From Escherichia coli (GTDB lineage Bacteria; Pseudomonadota; Gammaproteobacteria; Enterobacterales; Enterobacteriaceae): a stretch of 64,000 nt of DNA. This document shows, one piece after another, positions 47,231 through 63,082 of this stretch (position 1 is the stretch's first letter; each line of letters opens with the position of its first letter). A program made the position numbers and the translations under genes. Location: NCBI RefSeq assembly GCF_003334385.1, contig NZ_QOWN01000016.1. The stretch is one strand, 5' to 3'. The notes under the pieces are model-generated. The model searched no databases. It saw only the letters and a list, made by a program, of their open reading frames with translations, and was not told the origin of the DNA.

Positions 47231-48598
47231 TTAATAAAATAGCGTGATTGTGGCAATCATATTCACCACGAAACCGACTGCCATGGGGATCGCTGTCCGC
47301 TTCACCACCGCAAAAGGCGAAACGCCTGCAATTCCTGACGTAACGACCACCACCGCAGTAATCGGCGAAACCGCGCGCGCTAGCGTCGTGGCAAAATGCA
47401 TCGGCATAATCATTACAACCGCTGGTACATGTAGTCCGGCTGCGATATTCGGAATAAGACTGGCAAATGACATAAACGGCGCATTGCCAGAGCCCATCAC
47501 AATGGCACAAATGGCAATGACCAGCGCCATAATAATCATCACGCCAATACCGCCCAGACCAGAATGCTCCGCCCCCCTGATAACCGCATCGACAGTGCCA
47601 ATCGTCGTTAAGCCTTTCGCAAATATTTCACCCGCGACCACCAGCGTTACCACGTTGGCAAACTGCGTACCCATGCCGTCAAAAAACGCCTGCACATCGT
47701 CCATTGTTTCGCGCAAGTTATGCTTGCGGAAGAACTCAACAAACATCGTCACAGTCAAACTCAGTAACATCACCACCACCAGATGCAGTTCTGACTGCAT
47801 CAGCCCGACGTGGGCGAGGAACAGCGAGCCGAGCATCAGGATTAACGGCATCACAGGTAAAATGGCGTAATAGAGCGGCGGGACATTATCGAGAGCTTTT
47901 TGCTCTGCCTGTTCGTGATTGATATTTTTATCTTTTTTGTCAAAAGCGCGTTGCACGAAAAAGTGGGAGATCGCCACCGAGATAATGACGCAAGAGGCGA
48001 CCGGAAGCTGGTAGTGGAAGAAGTATGTGGCAATTTTCATTCCCGCTACCTGGGCAGCAAAAATGGAGTTCGTTTCCAGAATCCCCCACTCAATGGACAT
48101 CGTGGTTGCGATAACTGCCACCGCAGAGAGACGACTTACTCCCAGACTCACCAGCGTCGGAAATAAGGTGACCATCAGCAACATACCCAGACCGGAGGCG
48201 CTGGTAATAAACTGCGCCATGATTTGGCCGATGACGTAAGTTGCCGACAGAATAATATACGGCGAGCGAATGAGTTTTAACGGGCGGCTTAACAAGCTCA
48301 CCATCGCGCGACTGGCCCCTATGCGCTCCATGTAGCGGGCATAACCGCCCACCGCCATAATCGACAGCCCCAATCCGGCAATGCGGTTGGACAGCATGCG
48401 CAGGATTTCATTATAAATATCGACGATCAAGTAGCCGCTGCTTTTGGTGGGATCGAGTACACCACCGAACCCTAACCAGACACCGCACATCATCAGGAAG
48501 ATACCTGCGGCAGCCAGCACCACCTGAGGTTTGTAGTTTTTCAGGATCAAATAGCCCATCGTAATTAATACGATGACAGATATAATTATGCCGAACAT
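47231..48598 (-). CDS. dcuD: DcuC-family anaerobic C4-dicarboxylate transporter
   Basis: 455 aa from [23 protein letters not shown]; polytopic. Confidence 0.88.
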
Positions 48599-48977
48599 TG
48601 TTGAACTCCGTGTCAAAAGAAAACGGTCAATCCCATAAACGGCAGATTGAAAACAACGATGTTATATTTTTTGCAAGGCTATTTATGGTGCGGATGTCGT
48701 GTTTTTAATTGTAGGTGAGGTGATTTTTCATTAAAAAATATGCGCTTATGATTATTTTGTAAGAACACATTCATAATATTCATAATGCTCGTGAATAGTC
48801 TTATAAATAATTCAAACGGGATGTTTTTATCTGCGTTACATTAATTTTTCGCAATAGTTAATTATTCCGTTAATTATGGTAATGATGAGGCACAAAGAGA
48901 AAACCCTGCCATTTTCCCCTACTTTCAATCCTGTGATAGGATGTCACTGATGATGTTAATCACACTGACCTTACAGA

Positions 48978-49769
48978 ATGGGCCTTATGAACGCATTTGA
49001 TTCGCAAACCGAAGATTCTTCACCTGCAATTGGTCGCAACTTGCGTAGCCGCCCGCTGGCGCGTAAAAAACTCTCCGAAATGGTGGAAGAAGAGCTGGAA
49101 CAGATGATCCGCCGTCGTGAATTTGGCGAAGGTGAACAATTACCGTCTGAACGCGAACTGATGGCGTTCTTTAACGTCGGGCGTCCTTCGGTGCGTGAAG
49201 CGCTGGCAGCGTTAAAACGCAAAGGTCTGGTGCAAATAAACAACGGCGAACGCGCTCGCGTCTCGCGTCCTTCTGCGGACACTATCATCGGTGAGCTTTC
49301 CGGCATGGCGAAAGATTTCCTTTCTCATCCCGGTGGGATTGCCCATTTCGAACAATTACGTCTGTTCTTTGAATCCAGTCTGGTGCGCTATGCGGCTGAA
49401 CATGCCACCGATGAGCAAATCGATTTGCTGGCAAAAGCACTGGAAATCAACAGTCAGTCGCTGGATAACAACGCGGCATTCATTCGTTCAGACGTTGATT
49501 TCCACCGCGTGCTGGCGGAGATCCCCGGTAACCCAATCTTCATGGCGATCCACGTTGCCCTGCTCGACTGGCTTATTGCCGCACGCCCAACGGTTACCGA
49601 TCAGGCACTGCACGAACATAACAACGTTAGTTATCAACAGCATATTGCGATCGTTGATGCGATCCGCCGTCATGATCCTGACGAAGCCGATCGTGCGTTG
49701 CAATCGCATCTCAACAGCGTCTCTGCTACCTGGCACGCTTTCGGTCAGACCACCAACAAAAAGAAATAA
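48978..49769 (+). CDS. nanR: GntR/FadR-family repressor NanR
   Basis: 263 aa, N-terminal winged HTH ([22 protein letters not shown]). Confidence 0.93.
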
Positions 49770-54453: not shown

Positions 54454-54472
54454 AACTTAGTTCGTTTTAAAG

Positions 54473-54497
54473 ATTCTGCAGACACTGTCTGCAGAAT
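54473..54497. repeat. perfect palindrome ATTCTGCAGAC-ACT-GTCTGCAGAAT between convergent nanQ and yhcG stops
   Basis: 11-bp perfect arms around core CAGAC-N3-GTCTG; same family as three copies inside yhcG and one after gltD. Confidence 0.85.
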
Positions 54498-54512: not shown

Positions 54513-55640
54513 TTAACGGCGTCTATAGCCTTCCTCTAGCACCGCCTGTGTTCGAACGAGTTCATCTGCGAGTCGTTTCTCATCAGGTAGTTGCATCTTA
54601 TATTCGCTTGCCAGAACGGTGTTAGGCAAACCTGCCAGAGCATAATGCGCTTCTCCGGCTCCTTTCTCTGCACAGAGAACCAGACCGATGGGCGGATTTT
54701 CATCCGGTAGCGTCCAGTGCTCTTTGGCGTAGTTGAGATACATATTCATCTGTCCGGCATCGCTATAGCTGAATTTGCCCACTTTTAGATCGACGATTAG
54801 CAGGCAGCGTAAACGGCGGTGGAAAAACAGCAGATCGACACGAAACCAGTTGTCATCAATGCGTAACCTTCGCTGCCGACCAACAAAGGCAAAATCATCC
54901 CCAAGTTCCAGCATGAAATCCATCAGGTGGTTGATCAGCGCCTCCTCAAAATCGGATTCTGAATATTCATCTTTCAATTCCAGAAATTCGAGCACAAAGG
55001 GATCGCGTATCGCCTGTTGCGGAAGAATATGCGTCTCGGCAGGAGCGTGTTGTTGCAGCATGGCTGATTTGTCATGTGACAGTAGTGTCCGCTCATAAAA
55101 CTGGGTCGCAATTTGCCGCTCTAGCTGGCGAACAGACCAGCCACAGCGGAGCGTCTCTTTTTCATAAAAGCTGCGGGCGTCAGCGTTTTTAACGGAAAGT
55201 AAACGGACGTAGGTGGACCTGGGCAAGGGGAAAGATTTGGCAGACAGCGTCTGCCAAATCTTTGCCGATGGGAATTCTGCAGACGGTGTCTGCGGAATTC
55301 CCAATGGTGTTAATTCGCCAGACATTGTCTGGCGAATTTCAACATGTTGAAAAAAGAGGTAAAAAAGCCTCATTTGGCGTAAGTTTTTTGCAGAGAACCC
55401 ACGCTTATACCTTAGACATAAATCCTTTGATAGTCGCTTGATTAGCTGCGCACCATACGCAGCCCTGGCCTCGCCACCTTGTTCAAATTCGACAATTCGT
55501 CGGCCAATTTCCTGGTACGTCGCGGTCATTAACGCGTTAACGCTACGTACCGTTTCCGTCCGGGCGCTATCGACCAGATGAATAATACCGTCGTGGATTT
55601 GCTGGTAGCCTGCTGTGGTTCCTTCTGAGAGCGATTCCAT
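54513..55640 (-). CDS. yhcG: DUF1016 / PD-(D/E)XK nuclease-like protein
   Basis: 375 aa; C-terminal region carries a D...D-L-K arrangement (FRVDLLFF...LLIVDLKVGKF) compatible with a restriction-endonuclease fold; linker has three in-frame palindromic DNA units. Confidence 0.85.
   Translation of the reverse strand: MESLSEGTTAGYQQIHDGIIHLVDSARTETVRSVNALMTATYQEIGRRIVEFEQGGEARAAYGAQLIKRLSKDLCLRYKRGFSAKNLRQMRLFYLFFQHVEIRQTMSGELTPLGIPQTPSAEFPSAKIWQTLSAKSFPLPRSTYVRLLSVKNADARSFYEKETLRCGWSVRQLERQIATQFYERTLLSHDKSAMLQQHAPAETHILPQQAIRDPFVLEFLELKDEYSESDFEEALINHLMDFMLELGDDFAFVGRQRRLRIDDNWFRVDLLFFHRRLRCLLIVDLKVGKFSYSDAGQMNMYLNYAKEHWTLPDENPPIGLVLCAEKGAGEAHYALAGLPNTVLASEYKMQLPDEKRLADELVRTQAVLEEGYRRR
55231..55338. 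repeat. three tandem palindromes (CAGAC-N3-GTCTG cores) embedded in-frame in yhcG
   Basis: 55231-55263 AAAGATTTGGCAGAC-AGC-GTCTGCCAAATCTTT (15-bp perfect arms); 55270-55302 GGGAATTCTGCAGAC-GGT-GTCTGCGGAATTCCC (1 mismatch); 55312-55338 AATTCGCCAGAC-ATT-GTCTGGCGAATT (12-bp perfect arms); encode EIRQTMSGE / IPQTPSAEF / KIWQTLSAK. Confidence 0.85.
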
Positions 55641-55824
55641 TATCTGTCCCTTTATATGGAGCTAAGTTGAATAATGGAATGAGCTATACTCTGGGGGGTG
55701 AGCACTGAACAATTAAGAACAGCGTATTACATTTACTTTCCCCAAGATATGCGAAGAGCTTTCCTGAAACATTAACCGATCGTATAAAACGAATGCCTGA
55801 TAGTACTCCTGTCCGGCATTGTTA

Positions 55825-56541
55825 TCACAAGTAGACTACGCTTATCACAGCTTTCCCATCAAGTTCGATTTTTTCTGAACCGCCTAAATCATTCGCGATA
55901 GATGCGCTCACCTGAAGCGGTATAATGGCGTTCGTTACAGGAGTTGGGGTTGTTTCACCTGGTTTTACAAAGGTGTAATAATAGCTTTGATCGACTGCAA
56001 GCGGATAAGCGGTGAGCGTTTGCCATGCTCTTTTTTGCCCTGTTATGACGGCATCTGCACCTGCTATTGATACAGCTAACGTCTGGCTACCATTGCTGGC
56101 ACTAATGTTGTTGCTATCAATTAACACGGCATAACTACCGATATTTTTATTATCTTTTGTTTTCCCTAAGCCGAATAAGCGCGTTGTCTGGCTAATATAA
56201 CCTCCGCCATTTAAGGTATATTTTACACCACTCTGACCCCCACTATCTTTTCCGGTGGTCATACTATCCATTCGTGTATCACGAGCGGTAATCGCAATGC
56301 TGGTAGCGGATTCGCAAGTTATAGTCATATTAATATTACGTGTTCCAATCTGTGTGTAGTGCTGCGTTGAAAGTCTATTGACTGAATGACTACCGAAGTT
56401 AACAACTCCGCCGTTGCTTAGTATTGGAGTACAAGCTGCAGCTTCCAGAGTCACCTTAACGTCAATTGATACTCTATCAGCGGCTTGCGCTGACATGGCA
56501 AAAAAGGCACTTCCGGCAATCAGTAATTTTACATTGTTCAT
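55825..56541 (-). CDS. yhcF: DUF1120 fimbrial-like periplasmic protein
   Basis: 238 aa, signal peptide; clear paralogue of GltF (ACTPILSNGGVVNFGSH vs ACTPVVTGGGIVDYGKH; C-terminal EKIELDGKAVISVVYL vs ETIKLDGNVTISVQYL). Confidence 0.85.
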   Translation of the reverse strand: MNNVKLLIAGSAFFAMSAQAADRVSIDVKVTLEAAACTPILSNGGVVNFGSHSVNRLSTQHYTQIGTRNINMTITCESATSIAITARDTRMDSMTTGKDSGGQSGVKYTLNGGGYISQTTRLFGLGKTKDNKNIGSYAVLIDSNNISASNGSQTLAVSIAGADAVITGQKRAWQTLTAYPLAVDQSYYYTFVKPGETTPTPVTNAIIPLQVSASIANDLGGSEKIELDGKAVISVVYL

Positions 56542-57083
56542 TTTGCCTCCACCAGGACCGTCAGATTGCCTGTAATATCTGTCATGTCGGTTAGTTCCCC
56601 TTCATCCTTAAAAGCTGGAGCCATTGTCAGTGTGAGGCTAACGCTTTTACCGCTATCAATTACCACTTCTTGACCATTTTGCATAAACACCAGCCAATTA
56701 TTGGGGGAAGTACTAATTGATGCTGTTCCTGTGCTGCCCGGATTGTCATTTTTGCCACTGGCTAACGCCAGGTCGAGATTGTTACTACCTGAAAATGCAT
56801 CGCTGGCGATCAGATTTAATGAACCATTCGGGCCAAATCCAAATCCGTTGTTGGAAATATTAGCGGTATTCAACTGAACACGAATATGAGCGTCCTGATC
56901 GCATTGCATTACCAGCGTGATTGTTCTGTCTGCTAATTGTGTTGTTTTACCCCGGTCAACTTGGCGCATGGCAGCACTTCGTTTGCCATAGTCGATATTT
57001 TGTATGCTACTGGAGATATTACACTCTGCCTGAGCGGCCATGGCGAAGTTCAGCAGCAGGCATCCTGTTATTATCCGTTTCAT
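56538..57083 (-). CDS. yhcE: fimbrial-like protein, intact
   Basis: about 181 aa from ATG at 57083 (MKRIITGCLLLNFAMAAQA signal peptide); ATGA overlaps with yhcD stop and yhcF start; uninterrupted here. Confidence 0.75.
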   Translation of the reverse strand: MKRIITGCLLLNFAMAAQAECNISSSIQNIDYGKRSAAMRQVDRGKTTQLADRTITLVMQCDQDAHIRVQLNTANISNNGFGFGPNGSLNLIASDAFSGSNNLDLALASGKNDNPGSTGTASISTSPNNWLVFMQNGQEVVIDSGKSVSLTLTMAPAFKDEGELTDMTDITGNLTVLVEAK

Positions 57084-59461
57084 TGGCACTCTCCTGTTGC
57101 TGTCTCATAGAACACATCTTTTGGTGCATCTTCTGGGAATGTAAGGTGAATACGGCATGATTGCTGCTCATCTTTTATATCTAGCACCATGTCCGGTTTG
57201 ATGTTATTGAGGAATACAACACCGTCATCCACTGATGTTGTCAGATAGTTGCCTTCACTATCTTCAATCGCAACGCCTCTGGGCAGTTTTTTGCCGTCGG
57301 AAAGTGTGATATTGAGTAATGCACGGCGTTGTGTTATCGCACTGAATCCGACTTTCCCTACTGCACCACGGCCTTGTTTGATCATTTTTGTGCCGTTACC
57401 GATATCGACATTTTTTGGCAAGCTGGCGGTATCGATCTCAACTCCTGATGTTCGCCACGACTGGATTGATGGAATGACGGCATTACCCCGAAAATCTGTC
57501 CATACTGGGCCTGCCTGAGATGTAATTCTGACACCTGCAATATTGTTATCCATTTTTGCGATGGCGAAAGTGTCATTGATAGTCCACGGTGAAAAGGTCA
57601 CTCCCTGATCATGTACGGCAATACCACCTGACATCGTACCGTTGTAAGTACGGCTATCACTGCCGCTTGCTCCTGCGGCAAGGCTGACTTGGGTGTAATG
57701 GAGATTGGAACTGATACTGCCGTTCAAGCTCGTTTCACGTTCGTCGTGATCTCGTTCAGCATTCACATAGTAGGACATCTCATCTGAGACGACTCCCATG
57801 ACACCAGTACCATAGTGGGTTTTATGATCGTCATGGCGAGTATACAGTGTGGCGGTGTTTGATCTGCCAAATGGAATACTGATGTTGACGTAGAACAGAT
57901 CACCATCGTCTTCATTATTTTCTGAAGCACTAAGTTGATGCTGCCAGTTGACGGAAACCGTGGCGTGTTTGAACGCTTTGTTCCAGTTAATATTAAGGTT
58001 GCTTGAGTCATTGTCACCGTCGTAACTATATGTTTTATAGCCACTGATGTTGAAACCACCCAGAATGGAGTTAGACCAGTTTAAACCAAGCGCATAAGTG
58101 CTTTTAGTCGGATCGGTATAATCATCATCAATCGCTTCAGACAGTTCGCGATAATGGCGATCAGATCGAGTGAGGCTGGTTGTTAGCCCAAGTGAAAATG
58201 GGAGATTGTAGTTCGCGTCAAGACGATATTTCTGTCCTTGCAGTGAGTCTTTCGTATCCTGCGATGTACTAATTTGGCTGCTCACTGTTAAATCGGGCAG
58301 GGGAACCAGACTCGACCGGATTGATGCCGCCTGATAATTTTCTGCTACGATAACGCCGCCGTTCATTGCACTCCAGCGTGTCAGATTCCATCCGCTCGAT
58401 GCACTAATTACCCAAGGTGATTCGTCATAGTCATCGTCTACCCGCCCTATCGCGAAGCGATAACCCTGGAAGCTTTCTACATGCTGATTAAACAGGGTGG
58501 AGGGAACAATATAGTTGTGCGAACTACCGTCTGTTTCGACAACGGTGACATTAAGATCACTATTACCATTGCGAACAGGTACATCAGGGATAGTGAATGC
58601 GCCCGCAGGAACCAGAATGGAATGAATTAAAACTCCTTGTTGACGAATCTCGACACGAGCCTGAGAGGTGTTGGCTATACCAGTAACTTGCACACCACTG
58701 CCGCTGGTTTGCAATGCGTTGTCCGGTGCGATTTCGATACCGTAAATACTGGCTCCTTCCAACACGCTATTATTGAGGTTAACTTCACCTGCTCGCATGA
58801 GTGTTTTAAGATCTGTAAAGGTACGTTGAAGGTAGGTTGACGAGTTCTGGTTACTGAATGTGCCATTTGTTTGTGTAAGGAACTGATGGCTGCGTAACAT
58901 CCAGTCATTAATATTAATCCCGCCTTCAAGTGCAGCCTGGGAGTAGTCCGAACTCCCATTAGAAAATTCTGCACGGCTGCTCATCAGAGAGTAGTTTAGC
59001 AGCGCAGCTGTTCCACCAGTTGCTGCGTTTGTGAGATCCAACCCTATGGGAATGATCGCCTGTGGTGAAACGATAATATCTAACGCTTCCTGGTTAGGTA
59101 ATGGTGTGATTGTGGTACCCGGGTAGGACAATATATAGTCGTAACAGCCATTTTTTTCTTCAGAAGGAATTTTTAAACCGGCTTGTTGCAGAAATGCCTG
59201 ATCAAGACAAATGTCGCCATTTTCATCAAAGCGCGTAGCAATGTTGCCTTTTTTTTCGCCATTTACTGATACTATCAGTGAATATTCACCTGGCAAAAAA
59301 CGGGCTGAACGGGAAAAATAATGCGATATATTAGGATCTACACCTAGTGATTTTAATGTTTCCCGATCAAAATCAACAGCGGCAATCTCTATACCATCTG
59401 CATTGGCTGGGGGAGAAAAGGCAAAACCAATGGTGTAGGCCAGTAACGTTTTTTTTAACAT
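57080..59461 (-). CDS. yhcD: fimbrial outer-membrane usher
   Basis: 793 aa from ATG at 59461 (MLKKTLLAYTIGFAF...); usher-sized beta-barrel protein; ORF track opens at an upstream TTG. Confidence 0.88.
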   Translation of the reverse strand: MLKKTLLAYTIGFAFSPPANADGIEIAAVDFDRETLKSLGVDPNISHYFSRSARFLPGEYSLIVSVNGEKKGNIATRFDENGDICLDQAFLQQAGLKIPSEEKNGCYDYILSYPGTTITPLPNQEALDIIVSPQAIIPIGLDLTNAATGGTAALLNYSLMSSRAEFSNGSSDYSQAALEGGININDWMLRSHQFLTQTNGTFSNQNSSTYLQRTFTDLKTLMRAGEVNLNNSVLEGASIYGIEIAPDNALQTSGSGVQVTGIANTSQARVEIRQQGVLIHSILVPAGAFTIPDVPVRNGNSDLNVTVVETDGSSHNYIVPSTLFNQHVESFQGYRFAIGRVDDDYDESPWVISASSGWNLTRWSAMNGGVIVAENYQAASIRSSLVPLPDLTVSSQISTSQDTKDSLQGQKYRLDANYNLPFSLGLTTSLTRSDRHYRELSEAIDDDYTDPTKSTYALGLNWSNSILGGFNISGYKTYSYDGDNDSSNLNINWNKAFKHATVSVNWQHQLSASENNEDDGDLFYVNISIPFGRSNTATLYTRHDDHKTHYGTGVMGVVSDEMSYYVNAERDHDERETSLNGSISSNLHYTQVSLAAGASGSDSRTYNGTMSGGIAVHDQGVTFSPWTINDTFAIAKMDNNIAGVRITSQAGPVWTDFRGNAVIPSIQSWRTSGVEIDTASLPKNVDIGNGTKMIKQGRGAVGKVGFSAITQRRALLNITLSDGKKLPRGVAIEDSEGNYLTTSVDDGVVFLNNIKPDMVLDIKDEQQSCRIHLTFPEDAPKDVFYETATGECQ

Positions 59462-59481
59462 CCTTGTCGCTCCAGGCAAAG

Positions 59482-60156
59482 TTATTTTAAGTCAGTGACA
59501 TATTTATTACCGCGATAACCATATCGGCTGGCTGGGTAAAACTCGACTTTTGTATCCGTAGCGTTTGTTAATGCAGTAGTTGTACTGGTGTGTGGTAGAA
59601 AATAGGTCTTATTTATAGCCCCCGTTTTTCCTGAAGGGAGCGTTTTAAATTGTAAGGTCATACGAACGACATAATTACTGGGGTTGCTAATCTCAATTTG
59701 GTCGCCATTTTTACGCCATTCCAGGAATTTCCAGGTCTCTCGCTCTTCCGGCAGGGAAGCCGGGTGGATCAGTACAGGTAGATCCTGACGAATTGAAACA
59801 GTAACTCTGCTGCTCTTGTCATCTTTTGGTGGAATACCTTCGAACGTTACGCGTTTCAGCTCTTCTGATTGCAGAGGAACAGTCGCCTGAAGTAAAAATC
59901 GAACCTGTTGTACTTGACCGGCTTCAACACGAATAACGGGCTGAGTCGGGATTAAACGAATTGATTTATTGCTTTCAGGCAAATCAACAATGGTGGTGTA
60001 AAGCAATGAAGGATGATCATCTGTATTCTTAATATTAATACTAGCTTCACCACGCTTTTCATCAACCAGCAATACTGATGTTTCAGGAACCATCCCTGTG
60101 GCTAAGGTATTCATTGATGTTGTTATAAATACAGTGAATGTAATGTGTCTGAGCAT
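59482..60156 (-). CDS. yhcA: fimbrial periplasmic chaperone (PapD-like)
   Basis: 224 aa, signal peptide, chaperone-sized; immediately upstream of the usher. Confidence 0.88.
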   Translation of the reverse strand: MLRHITFTVFITTSMNTLATGMVPETSVLLVDEKRGEASINIKNTDDHPSLLYTTIVDLPESNKSIRLIPTQPVIRVEAGQVQQVRFLLQATVPLQSEELKRVTFEGIPPKDDKSSRVTVSIRQDLPVLIHPASLPEERETWKFLEWRKNGDQIEISNPSNYVVRMTLQFKTLPSGKTGAINKTYFLPHTSTTTALTNATDTKVEFYPASRYGYRGNKYVTDLK

Positions 60157-60327
60157 TTAAATTAAAACTCCTGTAATAATGATAAATAACGCAGAAACAT
60201 ATTGTTAATATATGTTATGCACTGTTTGCGATGAGATTGATTAAGACAGACCATGTCATAGGGCATAATCTGTCCGAGTTATAGCTAACTGGTTAATGCG
60301 TAAAAATAAAAACTGTATTACAAGTTC

Positions 60328-61092
60328 TTATAAATACTGAACGCTGATAGTGACGTTACCATCCAGTTTGATCGTTTCATCAGAACCAAGAATAGTATTG
60401 TCATTTACCGCAGCATCAATCAGTAACGGGAAGGTGACCGCTGTAATGGCAACAGGTGTCAGTTCCCCTGTTTTTGCAACAGAATAACCGCGCTCGATTG
60501 CTGAGCAACTTGTCAGCGAGCAGAATGCGCCATTAGATGAGGCTTTCCATGTGGGGGTCGCTGCTGACCAGTGGTCAGTTTGAATCAGGTCGACAGGAAT
60601 TTCACCTGTATCGTCCGCCGCGTGAATCCCACCATTAGACCTGTCAATACCAATGGATGCAGCGCCAATTTTTTGTCCATTAGGCGCAGAACCTAAACCA
60701 AAGGCGTTTTTCGTTCCCTTCATATCTACGAGAGTATCATAAGCTTTTTCAATATAGGATGTGTCGTTTAACGCTACAATGGTCGACTGACGGTTATCCT
60801 TGGAGGTTACAGCAATTAGCGTTGGTGCTGTGCAGGTTATATTTAATGTGCTGTTTTTGCGGCCCAGTTGAACCAGTTTATTACTTTTACCGGTCGGATT
60901 CAGCGCACTGTTATGATGTTTCCCATAGTCAACAATGCCGCCGCCCGTAACAACTGGGGTACATGCACCAGGGGTATACTCGCCGATGATAGTTAATTCT
61001 GTATCAGTTGAATCTGTTGCCATGGCACTGAATGCTGCAACAGAAAGTGCTGCACAAATAGCAGCTGTTGTGAGGTTCTTTTTGAAAAACAT
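60328..61092 (-). CDS. gltF: DUF1120 periplasmic protein GltF
   Basis: 254 aa, signal peptide MFFKKNLTTAAICAALSVAAFSAMA; paralogue of YhcF. Confidence 0.88.
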   Translation of the reverse strand: MFFKKNLTTAAICAALSVAAFSAMATDSTDTELTIIGEYTPGACTPVVTGGGIVDYGKHHNSALNPTGKSNKLVQLGRKNSTLNITCTAPTLIAVTSKDNRQSTIVALNDTSYIEKAYDTLVDMKGTKNAFGLGSAPNGQKIGAASIGIDRSNGGIHAADDTGEIPVDLIQTDHWSAATPTWKASSNGAFCSLTSCSAIERGYSVAKTGELTPVAITAVTFPLLIDAAVNDNTILGSDETIKLDGNVTISVQYL

Positions 61093-61611
61093 ATGAACAT
61101 ATCCTTAATAACAAATTTATTTTTTAAAATAAAAAGCTGAAGCAGTATATATATCTGTTTGTGAATGTAAATAAATAACTCGTTCAGAAATAGCCAACTT
61201 GCTGGGATGTATTTATTTAATGAATTTTATAGTTACGATCATGTGAATAATAAGGTGCTGGTGAGGTGGTTTGTGGTGATAATTATTCATTACATGAATG
61301 TTTGCGCTGAAAAATAGGAAAATATATAGATAATTAAGGATAATATATTGGTTTTTTATATTCATATTTTGTATATTAATATCGAGACAATTTACATGGA
61401 ATGAAAAGACTGAATAGCTTGCAGAATCGGTATTGTCAGAGGTGTTAACAAGTAATTGAGACGGATTGTAAATGAGAAATTGCTTGATGTGCTTCACTCA
61501 TCAGACTTGGTGAACAAAGCACAATTTATTGAAAATTATCCCTATTATAGGAAAGGTCAAACGCTCATGCCGCATTTGCCAGAAAACAACGCGCACTTCG
61601 TCAGTAATTTG

Positions 61612-61636
61612 ATTCGCCAGACACAGTCTGGCGAAT
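61612..61636. repeat. perfect palindrome ATTCGCCAGAC-ACA-GTCTGGCGAAT just 3' of gltD
   Basis: 11-bp perfect arms; arm sequence identical to the yhcG-internal unit at 55312-55338; 16 bp from the gltD stop codon. Confidence 0.85.
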
Positions 61637-61651
61637 TCATTGTTACCTCGC

Positions 61652-63082
<1,431 letters not shown>

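Follow-up and report, generated by a model that had tools for sequence, protein, structure and literature searches.

Assembly by the donor-strand mechanism is established for chaperone–usher systems. Among these systems the beta clade, to which the Salmonella fimbria Stj belongs (PMC9238391), is an usher clade in the scheme of Nuccio and Baumler; its operons add a small YhcE-like gene to genes for DUF1120-type subunits, chaperone and usher, and the locus studied here has the same make-up. The genes gltF, yhcA, yhcD, yhcE and yhcF of Escherichia coli have been described as a beta chaperone–usher locus that is intact in phylogroup-A enterotoxigenic E. coli (ETEC; PMC5216030), Yhc has been listed as a sporadic beta-clade type (PMC3559732), and gltF-yhcADEF has been counted among the 12 chaperone–usher operons of MG1655 (PMC8174762). 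In this study, we analyzed a stretch of 64,000 nucleotides from E. coli (assembly GCF_003334385.1, contig NZ_QOWN01000016.1), hereafter called the window, in which five co-oriented minus-strand open reading frames, gltF-yhcA-yhcD-yhcE-yhcF, fill positions 55825-61092. This block is the already catalogued yhc operon, the E. coli representative of the beta-fimbrial clade. Considering all the results together, the best explanation, which we regard as quite probable, is that the window holds an intact yhc beta operon encoding pilin-like subunits, with YhcE as tip, YhcF as adaptor and GltF as stalk, and that this operon is an old neighbor of gltD whose alleles have been exchanged.

The 5.8-kb block was 99.9-100% identical in DNA to E. 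coli loci annotated as gltF, yhcA, yhcD, YhcE family and yhcF in K-12 and other phylogroup-A strains. The yhc locus of K-12 MG1655 has the same genes in the same order and at the same site between gltD and yhcG, and the full-length 717-bp yhcF described for K-12 (PMC5216030) has the same length in the window. In contrast, yhcE of MG1655 is split by IS5R/insH10, whereas the window carries it uninterrupted. All five reading frames were intact in the window and in many 100%-identical genomes. A first-pass annotation, made from the letters of the window alone, had described a minus-strand run of five genes between gltD and yhcG with ATGA overlaps at yhcD/yhcE and yhcE/yhcF, and the reading frames and the sequence agree with it on the run and on both overlaps (...TGCCAATGAAACGG and ...GCAAAATGAACAAT, respectively). 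Its description of a chaperone–usher cluster built on DUF1120 proteins was likewise supported by Pfam and NCBIfam matches, but its view of the cluster as a non-canonical oddity has to be given up, as the locus is the published yhc beta-fimbrial locus. Nothing about the cluster itself is new, and the window holds an uninterrupted allele of a known locus. Our additions are modest: the assignment of YhcE as a subunit together with its conservation and natural fusions, the confirmation of a chaperone lacking the classical clamp, and the states of the genomic site with the palindromes that bracket it.

Compared with the described systems, the yhc proteins were recognized by the NCBIfam models of a beta system (NF011829-NF011832), the usher above the cut-off and the subunits below it. 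GltF, YhcF and YhcE scored far under the equivalog cut-offs of NF011829-31 (for example, 95 vs. 333 bits), and therefore they are relatives, not orthologues, of the proteins on which these models are built. Stj sits elsewhere in the Salmonella genome. With type 1 and P pili (Fim and Pap), the yhc system shares the usher domain architecture, a PapD_N chaperone and, as best structural match of the models, the pilin fold, as well as a gene order of major subunit, chaperone, usher and then minor or tip subunits. Unlike those of Fim and Pap, however, the yhc subunits belong to DUF1120 rather than to the Fimbrial family and are about 70 residues longer, and the candidate tip YhcE is a single-domain protein with no separate lectin domain.

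GltF and YhcF matched Pfam DUF1120 (PF06551) with E-values of 1.8e-45 and 2.4e-47, respectively, in a family that comprised 1592 cluster representatives at E<=1e-3. The two proteins could be aligned over their full length (30% identity, E=5e-26), and the motifs ACTP..GG.V..G.H and I.LDG...ISV.YL were found in both, so that the paralogy proposed in the first-pass annotation is well founded. The Pfam Fimbrial family gave no match to GltF, YhcF or YhcE even at E<=10, and a sequence search of the PDB with GltF returned nothing meaningful. The AlphaFold2 model of GltF, built on a 135-sequence alignment, was all-beta and confident (predicted local distance difference test score, pLDDT, 88; predicted template modelling score, pTM, 0.81), and in fold comparison the best structural matches of the GltF and YhcE models were chaperone–usher pilins. 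Modelling covered GltF and YhcE, and YhcF was grouped with them by its homology to GltF. Judged from its model, GltF looks like a pilin core with large insertions.

Landmarks of the classical pilin FimA were also recognized. In GltF, a signal peptide precedes an N-terminal extension of about 18 residues (TDSTDTELTIIGEYTPGA); the cysteine pair is Cys44-Cys87, and the chain ends in ...VQYL. The extensions of GltF and YhcF are about 15-18 residues long, show alternating hydrophobic residues and end in ...AC; the second Cys follows the first by 39-43 residues, compared with 40 in FimA, and both proteins carry the penultimate Tyr of FimA. In GltF, the first Cys is residue 44 of the precursor as in FimA, the Cys spacing is 43 (FimA 40), and VQYL corresponds to VQYQ. 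The earlier statement that these proteins are not classical pilin subunits is thus correct at the level of Pfam families, but it does not extend to their architecture, since the models are pilin-like and the extension, the Cys pair and the penultimate Tyr of FimA are present. GltF is the candidate for the major (stalk) subunit.

YhcE, which has been called of unclear function (PMC5216030), failed the Pfam DUF1120 profile (E=0.11). When a 17-sequence profile of the YhcE family was compared with the DUF1120 profile, hhalign gave a full-length match with a probability of 98.4% and E=5e-15, and on this profile comparison we regard YhcE as a remote DUF1120 homologue. Its AlphaFold2 model had a pLDDT of 84. 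YhcE lacks the N-terminal extension: the conserved first Cys lies 1-3 residues past the signal-peptide cleavage site (one residue in the YhcE of the window), and the C-terminal YL is missing too. The distance from the signal-peptide core to this Cys had a median of 8 residues in 27 YhcE-like proteins vs. 23 in 72 DUF1120 proteins, and although the distance is a noisy heuristic, the two distributions were clearly separate. A lipoprotein assignment suggested by an ITGC motif near the N-terminus was considered and rejected, as this Cys is residue 8 and is not conserved in orthologues.

The position of the gene is also conserved. Loci with related ushers were collected by means of an alignment of six beta ushers and two peptide patterns, the 27 loci so returned being a sample and not a census, and the 31 loci examined came from Enterobacteriaceae, Herbaspirillum, Cupriavidus, Burkholderia and Pseudomonas. 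A YhcE-like gene stood directly 3' of the usher gene, often overlapping it, in 28 of the 31; one of these, from Citrobacter koseri (L040), is a degraded locus with a 108-aa YhcE-like fragment behind a fragmented usher. The same 31 loci carried one to five DUF1120 genes ahead of the chaperone gene and zero to two past yhcE. In Pseudomonas sichuanensis (L030, 8238-9491) and P. akapageensis (L033, 8376-9557), the gene behind the usher encodes a single fusion protein of 393-417 aa, composed of a YhcE-like domain (E ~1e-23 to 1e-25), an extension-like linker and a DUF1120 domain (E ~1e-41 to 1e-45). A domain-linker-domain arrangement of this kind is the one that structural biologists use when a subunit is to be self-complemented with its neighbor's strand. 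The order YhcE-linker-DUF1120 is what one would predict if YhcE is complemented by the strand of the following subunit; it would place YhcE distal to a DUF1120 subunit, and the Pseudomonas fusions are candidates for two-domain tip proteins of beta-class systems.

Because a groove-bearing subunit without a donor strand can take only the first place in donor-strand assembly, we infer a distal tip or initiator role for YhcE and, for YhcF, that of an adaptor between YhcE and the GltF stalk. A broader proposal, which we put forward tentatively and with slightly less than even confidence, is that YhcE-family proteins are the tip or initiator subunits of all beta-class systems: single-domain DUF1120-like pilins that have lost their donor strand and cap the fiber. 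The subunit that follows, YhcF in E. coli, would be attached to them, and in some Pseudomonas species both would be united in one two-domain protein. If this is true, beta fimbriae, with their clamp-less chaperone, would be intermediate between the classical and archaic assembly modes. As for annotation, proteins now labelled 'DUF1120' or 'YhcE family' could be named fimbrial subunits.

These subunit characters also bear on whether the exported product is a pilus at all. What the system exports could instead be non-fibrous, for instance very short oligomers or an afimbrial coat. According to PMC5216030, the lack of a recognized tip adhesin led Nuccio and Baumler to propose that beta systems make thin fibers or afimbrial structures; moreover, at about 230 aa with large insertions in the pilin core, the subunits are much larger than rod-forming pilins. 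The FimA-like N-terminal extensions speak for a fiber, however, as do a dedicated extension-less subunit and natural tip-like two-domain fusions, which are features of ordered, polar fibers. We consider a non-fibrous product unlikely.

The chaperone YhcA matched Pfam PapD_N (1.1e-23) and NCBIfam NF007392 (319.7 bits, cut-off 183); the Pfam scan gave no significant match to PapD_C. Its sequence matches in the PDB were classical chaperones only (Caf1M, DraB, CupB2 and PapD). In an alignment of six beta chaperones, comprising YhcA and five orthologues, FimC Arg8 was replaced by Val or Ser and Lys112 by Pro in every sequence, and the conserved Lys of Caf1M faced the same Pro in YhcA. The Arg8/Lys112 anchor, which clamps the C-terminal carboxylate of the subunit, is absent from all six, and in this as in the lack of a significant PapD_C match YhcA differs from the Fim and Pap chaperones. 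Beta chaperones have been reported to lack the classical anchors and in this respect to resemble CsuC (PMC4654587). Going by these alignments, the yhc system is best described as classical-like with what appears to be a non-classical hold on the subunit C-terminus.

In YhcD, the N-terminal, barrel and C-terminal domains were all found (Pfam PapC_N 2.2e-9, Usher 3.8e-150, PapC_C 7.7e-12), and NCBIfam NF011832 was matched with 1271 bits (cut-off 723). K-12 yhcD is a beta-clade representative (PMC5216030, PMC3559732), and since the yhcD DNA of the window is 100% identical to it, the usher of the window belongs to the beta clade. The YhcD protein is detectable in K-12, is regulated through cAMP/CRP and binds complement C3b (PMC6658569). 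As a side observation, a 5-kb contig (L015) labelled 'MAG: Collinsella sp.' (MAG, metagenome-assembled genome) encodes a YhcD that is 100% identical to the E. coli protein, and this is almost certainly an E. coli contig misbinned into a Collinsella genome.

By analogy with the described systems, we propose a plausible model for assembly by the yhc operon. YhcA would lend a strand to each subunit and so hold it in the periplasm, and at YhcD the extension of an incoming subunit would displace the chaperone strand of the previous one. YhcE, unable to donate a strand, would be the first and most distal subunit, that is, the tip and possibly an adhesin. YhcF, translationally coupled to YhcE, would link it to a stalk consisting mostly of GltF, which is encoded by the first gene with a stable hairpin behind it. 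Without the Arg8/Lys112 clamp, YhcA would need another way of gripping the subunit C-terminus, which has been proposed before for beta chaperones. The model amounts to a testable parts list for this fimbrial class, namely a GltF stalk, a YhcF adaptor, an extension-less YhcE tip and a clamp-less chaperone. The strain behind the window and others whose locus is intact are suitable material for it, and K-12 is not.

Several points weigh against an intact operon that builds such a fiber. No fiber or surface product of the yhc operon was found reported in the literature searched, and deletion of yhc in ETEC strain 100664 left adherence to Caco-2 cells unchanged (PMC5216030). Nuccio and Baumler suggested afimbrial or thin structures for beta systems, according to the citation in PMC5216030. 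Insertion sequences (IS1, IS2, IS3 or IS5) lie within the locus of many genomes, and truncated forms of yhcF exist (PMC5216030), both compatible with decay in some lineages. Monomer models cannot reveal a missing G strand or donor-strand exchange, and the tip and adaptor roles given to YhcE and YhcF rest on sequence logic and two natural fusions.

Part of this evidence could be taken to mean that the cluster is a cryptic remnant, kept by chance in one E. coli lineage, silenced, decaying and building nothing. The disruption of K-12 yhcE by IS5, the insertions and IS1-mediated deletions in other genomes, and a premature stop in yhcD of ETEC beside the truncated yhcF alleles and the missing adhesion phenotype (PMC5216030) would fit such a state, as would low RNA levels in a region flagged as H-NS-bound (PMC10294691) and the absence of the cluster from 79% of complete E. 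coli genomes. However, the five frames are intact here and in many identical genomes, and the ratio of nonsynonymous to synonymous divergence (dN/dS) against relatives was 0.05-0.22 wherever synonymous divergence (dS) was unsaturated, with at least one such comparison for each of the five genes, which indicates that the cluster has been under long-term purifying selection. The gene order is moreover kept, with all five genes across several genera and as a four-gene core in Betaproteobacteria and Pseudomonas, and K-12 makes detectable YhcD protein, which influences complement binding (PMC6658569). A mere remnant is in our opinion distinctly unlikely, and an intact beta operon is the better reading.

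In MG1655, a PhoB site at 3362763, listed as '(yhcA) yhcD', lies inside yhcA and upstream of yhcD; its table entry marks the region as one for which H-NS binding had been reported earlier and gives low RNA levels (PMC10294691 Table 1). The PhoB box GGTAATAAATATGTCACT had one exact match in the window (0 expected by chance), at 59494-59511 (minus) in the 3' end of yhcA; in K-12, the same box is bound by PhoB yet transcriptionally inert (PMC10294691). A direct H-NS chromatin immunoprecipitation table for gltF/yhc, or derepression data from hns mutants, was not found in the literature search. It is plausible, and indirectly supported by this literature, that the yhc operon is cryptic and H-NS-bound. 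The spacer between gltD and gltF is poorly conserved and of different length in the related copies described below; it contains a candidate promoter-like site (Table 1), and a scan for promoters and terminators found no excess of sites over shuffled sequence in the region. In the gltF-yhcA spacer, the segment 60150-60335 (minus) folded as RNA with -35.7 kcal/mol (z=-2.56), and only 1 of 200 shuffled sequences was as stable. A simple terminator scan found no T-run terminator in this spacer, and the stem-loop there may be an attenuator or an mRNA-stabilizing hairpin behind the first subunit gene. The Rfam scan of 55000-62000, AT-rich spacers included, gave no match at E<=1.

The place of gltF next to glutamate synthase genes has given it another interpretation, in which GltF serves the glutamate synthase operon gltBDF as a regulator or accessory protein and has no functional tie to yhcADEF. 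The gene is co-oriented with gltBD, it is among the Lrp targets within gltBDF, and it has been described as a member of that operon; early genetic work reportedly gave it a role in nitrogen regulation. Against this, GltF has a signal peptide and a pilin-like model and is a paralogue of YhcF, and a 559-bp spacer of 32% G+C separates gltD from gltF. In E. coli, gltD was present in 5417 genomes and the gltF block in only 1302, and six further loci from enterobacteria have the cluster and gltD in convergent orientation, which makes co-transcription with gltBD impossible there. DUF1120 genes also adjoin a chaperone and an usher gene in unrelated genomes showing no nearby gltD. A glutamate synthase function is consequently very improbable, and the annotation of gltF calls for caution, as the gene lies outside any conserved glutamate synthase operon. 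It is a more speculative thought that the Escherichia orientation, which puts gltF after gltBD, could couple production of the major subunit to nitrogen and Lrp control of glutamate synthase.

Base composition set the cluster apart from its surroundings. The G+C content was 0.443 in the coding block, 0.320 in the gltD-gltF spacer (61093-61651) and 0.304 in the gltF-yhcA spacer, against 0.513 in the remaining window, where no other 5.9-kb stretch fell below 0.474. G+C at third codon positions (GC3) was 0.35-0.44 in the five cluster genes and 0.47-0.65 in the window's 40 other long genes, two ranges that do not overlap (Mann-Whitney p=3e-4). The codon adaptation index, a window-internal one built from these other 40 genes and not the Sharp and Li E. 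coli index, was 0.585-0.647 for the cluster genes vs. a mean of 0.712 (p=3e-4). The AT-rich block and the very AT-rich region upstream of it, which the first-pass annotation had estimated by eye, are therefore real, and the cluster is distinguishable from its flanks in both composition and codon usage. Elsewhere in the window, the stretch 48500-48999, between a dcuC-like gene (47231-48598) and nanR (48978-49769), is also AT-rich (0.358 G+C) and is probably a divergent regulatory region.

Table 1. Coordinates of the yhc cluster, its flanks and associated elements in the window, with protein identity and synonymous divergence (dS) of window genes relative to their E. ruysiae-type / E. albertii-type counterparts.
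Feature	Position	Strand	Description	Protein identity (%)	dS
gltF	60328-61092	minus	254 aa; exported DUF1120 protein	62 / 78	1.38 / 1.37
yhcA	59482-60156	minus	224 aa; PapD-like periplasmic chaperone	74 / 83	3.21 / 1.11
yhcD	57080-59461 (from its ATG)	minus	793 aa; outer-membrane usher	67 / 82	saturated / 2.02
yhcE	56538-57083 (from its ATG)	minus	181 aa; exported protein of predicted pilin fold, intact	78 / 59	0.66 / saturated
yhcF	55825-56541	minus	238 aa, 717 bp; DUF1120 subunit with N-terminal extension	86 / 68	0.62 / saturated
gltD	61652-63070		Flank upstream of the cluster	98 / 99	0.36 / 0.29
yhcG	54513-55640	minus	Flank downstream of the cluster, followed by nan genes		
nanK			Flank	97 / 94	0.18 / 0.51
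gltD-gltF spacer	61093-61651		559 bp, 32% G+C		
Promoter-like site TTTACA-16-TATACT	61171-61144	minus	Candidate; ~50 bp upstream of gltF; 10/12 positions		
12-bp stem-loop	60244-60275	minus	In the AT-rich gltF-yhcA spacer		
Palindrome	61609-61637		29 bp; 12 bp separate it from the gltD stop; bounds the accessory segment on the right; sole spacer element that B2-type genomes retain between nanQ and gltD		
Palindrome	54470-54497		Same family; flanked by the stop codons of nanQ and yhcG; bounds the 7.1-kb segment on the left		

Comparison with relatives showed that the site of the cluster is shared well beyond E. coli. The same five genes lie in the same orientation directly downstream of gltD in contigs that we call E. 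ruysiae-type and E. albertii-type, because they encode proteins named by NCBI from those species. In Enterobacter mori, E. asburiae, Leclercia (two loci), Silvania confinis and Klebsiella oxytoca, the cluster lies inverted against the 3' end of gltD, and in Pseudenterobacter timonensis the inverted cluster is about 3 kb from gltD. As the cluster stands beside gltD in several enterobacterial genera, the association is old. The divergence of its genes, on the other hand, is far greater than that of the flanks: dS ranged from 0.6 to saturation in the cluster vs. 0.18-0.51 in gltD and nanK (Table 1), an excess that cannot be explained by selection on the proteins. Similarity was in addition mosaic, with gltF, yhcA and yhcD nearer to the E. 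albertii type and yhcE and yhcF nearer to the E. ruysiae type. Judging from the open reading frame list, the block contains no integrase, tRNA, transposase or other mobility gene; its neighbors on both sides are protein-coding genes, and the only bracketing repeat is a palindrome of 26-29 bp.

Horizontal acquisition, as proposed in the first-pass annotation, is thus in keeping with the composition, the codon usage, the patchy presence and the excess dS, but the cluster is not a recent arrival at a new site and brings no mobility genes with it. In our reading of these comparisons, the site is probably fixed and ancient, alleles would have been exchanged horizontally, and E. coli would hold a single cluster lineage. 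The locus would then be an example of how surface structures evolve, with a fimbrial operon at an old fixed site by gltD undergoing allele swaps and repeated loss. Alternatively, the cluster could be an ancestral Escherichia locus that was inherited vertically and lost repeatedly, its AT-richness and divergence reflecting the fast evolution of surface proteins. Vertical descent agrees with several observations: the E. ruysiae-type and E. albertii-type contigs carry the cluster at the same place downstream of gltD and in the same orientation, inverted clusters stand beside gltD in five other genera, mobility genes are lacking, and one of the empty sites described below fits as well. What it does not accommodate well is a cluster dS several-fold above that of gltD (0.29-0.36) and nanK (0.18-0.51), the mosaic similarity to the two types, and the fact that every E. 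coli copy is at least 99% identical, which fits a single lineage or a single introduction. We therefore consider purely vertical descent rather unlikely and favor the exchange of alleles at an old site.

Within E. coli, 1136 of 5426 complete genomes carried yhcD, and no copy fell below 99% identity, also with sensitive blastn, whereas gltD was found in 5417 and matches to the gltF block in 1302; the accessory status assigned to the cluster at first pass is borne out by these counts. No yhcD copies of 95-98% identity in other phylogroups were found among the 5426 genomes. Most genomes without the block have one of two types of empty site. In O157-like/B1-type and other genomes, gltD is followed by 183 bp and a frameshifted yhcG. 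Homology of the O157-type site to the window stops at 55768/55769 and restarts at 61650, with an unrelated 54-bp filler between, in which no cluster remnants were found; an origin by deletion and one by insertion would both fit this site. The yhcG of the O157-like/B1-like genomes is 79 bp shorter, is annotated as frameshifted, and its alignment breaks at tandem repeats. About 1000 other genomes match only the 34-37 nt adjoining gltD, and in two of these (an O2:K1:H4 avian pathogenic E. coli strain, APEC, and strain R10) the order is nanQ, 67 bp and gltD, without yhcG or the cluster.

The 67-bp nanQ-gltD spacer holds a single 29-bp palindrome that is present twice in the window, between nanQ and yhcG and next to gltD (Table 1). 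Bracketed by the two copies is a 7.1-kb segment with yhcG, the AT-rich spacer and the yhc cluster, and B2-type genomes lack this segment. In the B2-type locus L043, homology to the window extends up to 54498 and again from 61612, and both matches include the single palindrome, where they overlap. Such a pattern is left by either a deletion between repeats or an insertion at a hairpin; the single palindrome is what deletion between repeats, and hence repeated loss of a vertically inherited locus, predicts. The palindromes form a family of 26-29 bp with an invariant CAGACnnnGTCTG core and covarying outer stems. Five copies occur in the 64 kb, all within 54.4-61.7 kb, where 0.03 would be expected by chance. 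Both the E. ruysiae-type and the E. albertii-type contigs have related palindromes behind yhcF and nanQ, and the former type also behind gltD. The palindromes could serve as a recombination site or as terminators acting in both directions. Three of the copies in the window, at 55232-55338, lie in yhcG, in 39-bp tandem units that encode a repeated I-x-Q-T-x-S peptide; YhcG itself was matched by no NCBIfam model.

Other events were also seen at this site. In E. coli MSB1_1D (L001) and ECCWS199 (L002), IS1 replaces the yhc cluster and the 5' part of yhcG, which indicates IS1-associated deletions of the locus. E. coli 18KM2445 (L005, 1328-8768) carries a different five-gene island at the site equivalent to 55769-61649 of the window, encoding SWIM zinc finger, DUF5691, AAA ATPase, DUF5682 and VWA domain proteins, and this suggests that the gltD-yhcG site is a hot spot of insertion or replacement.

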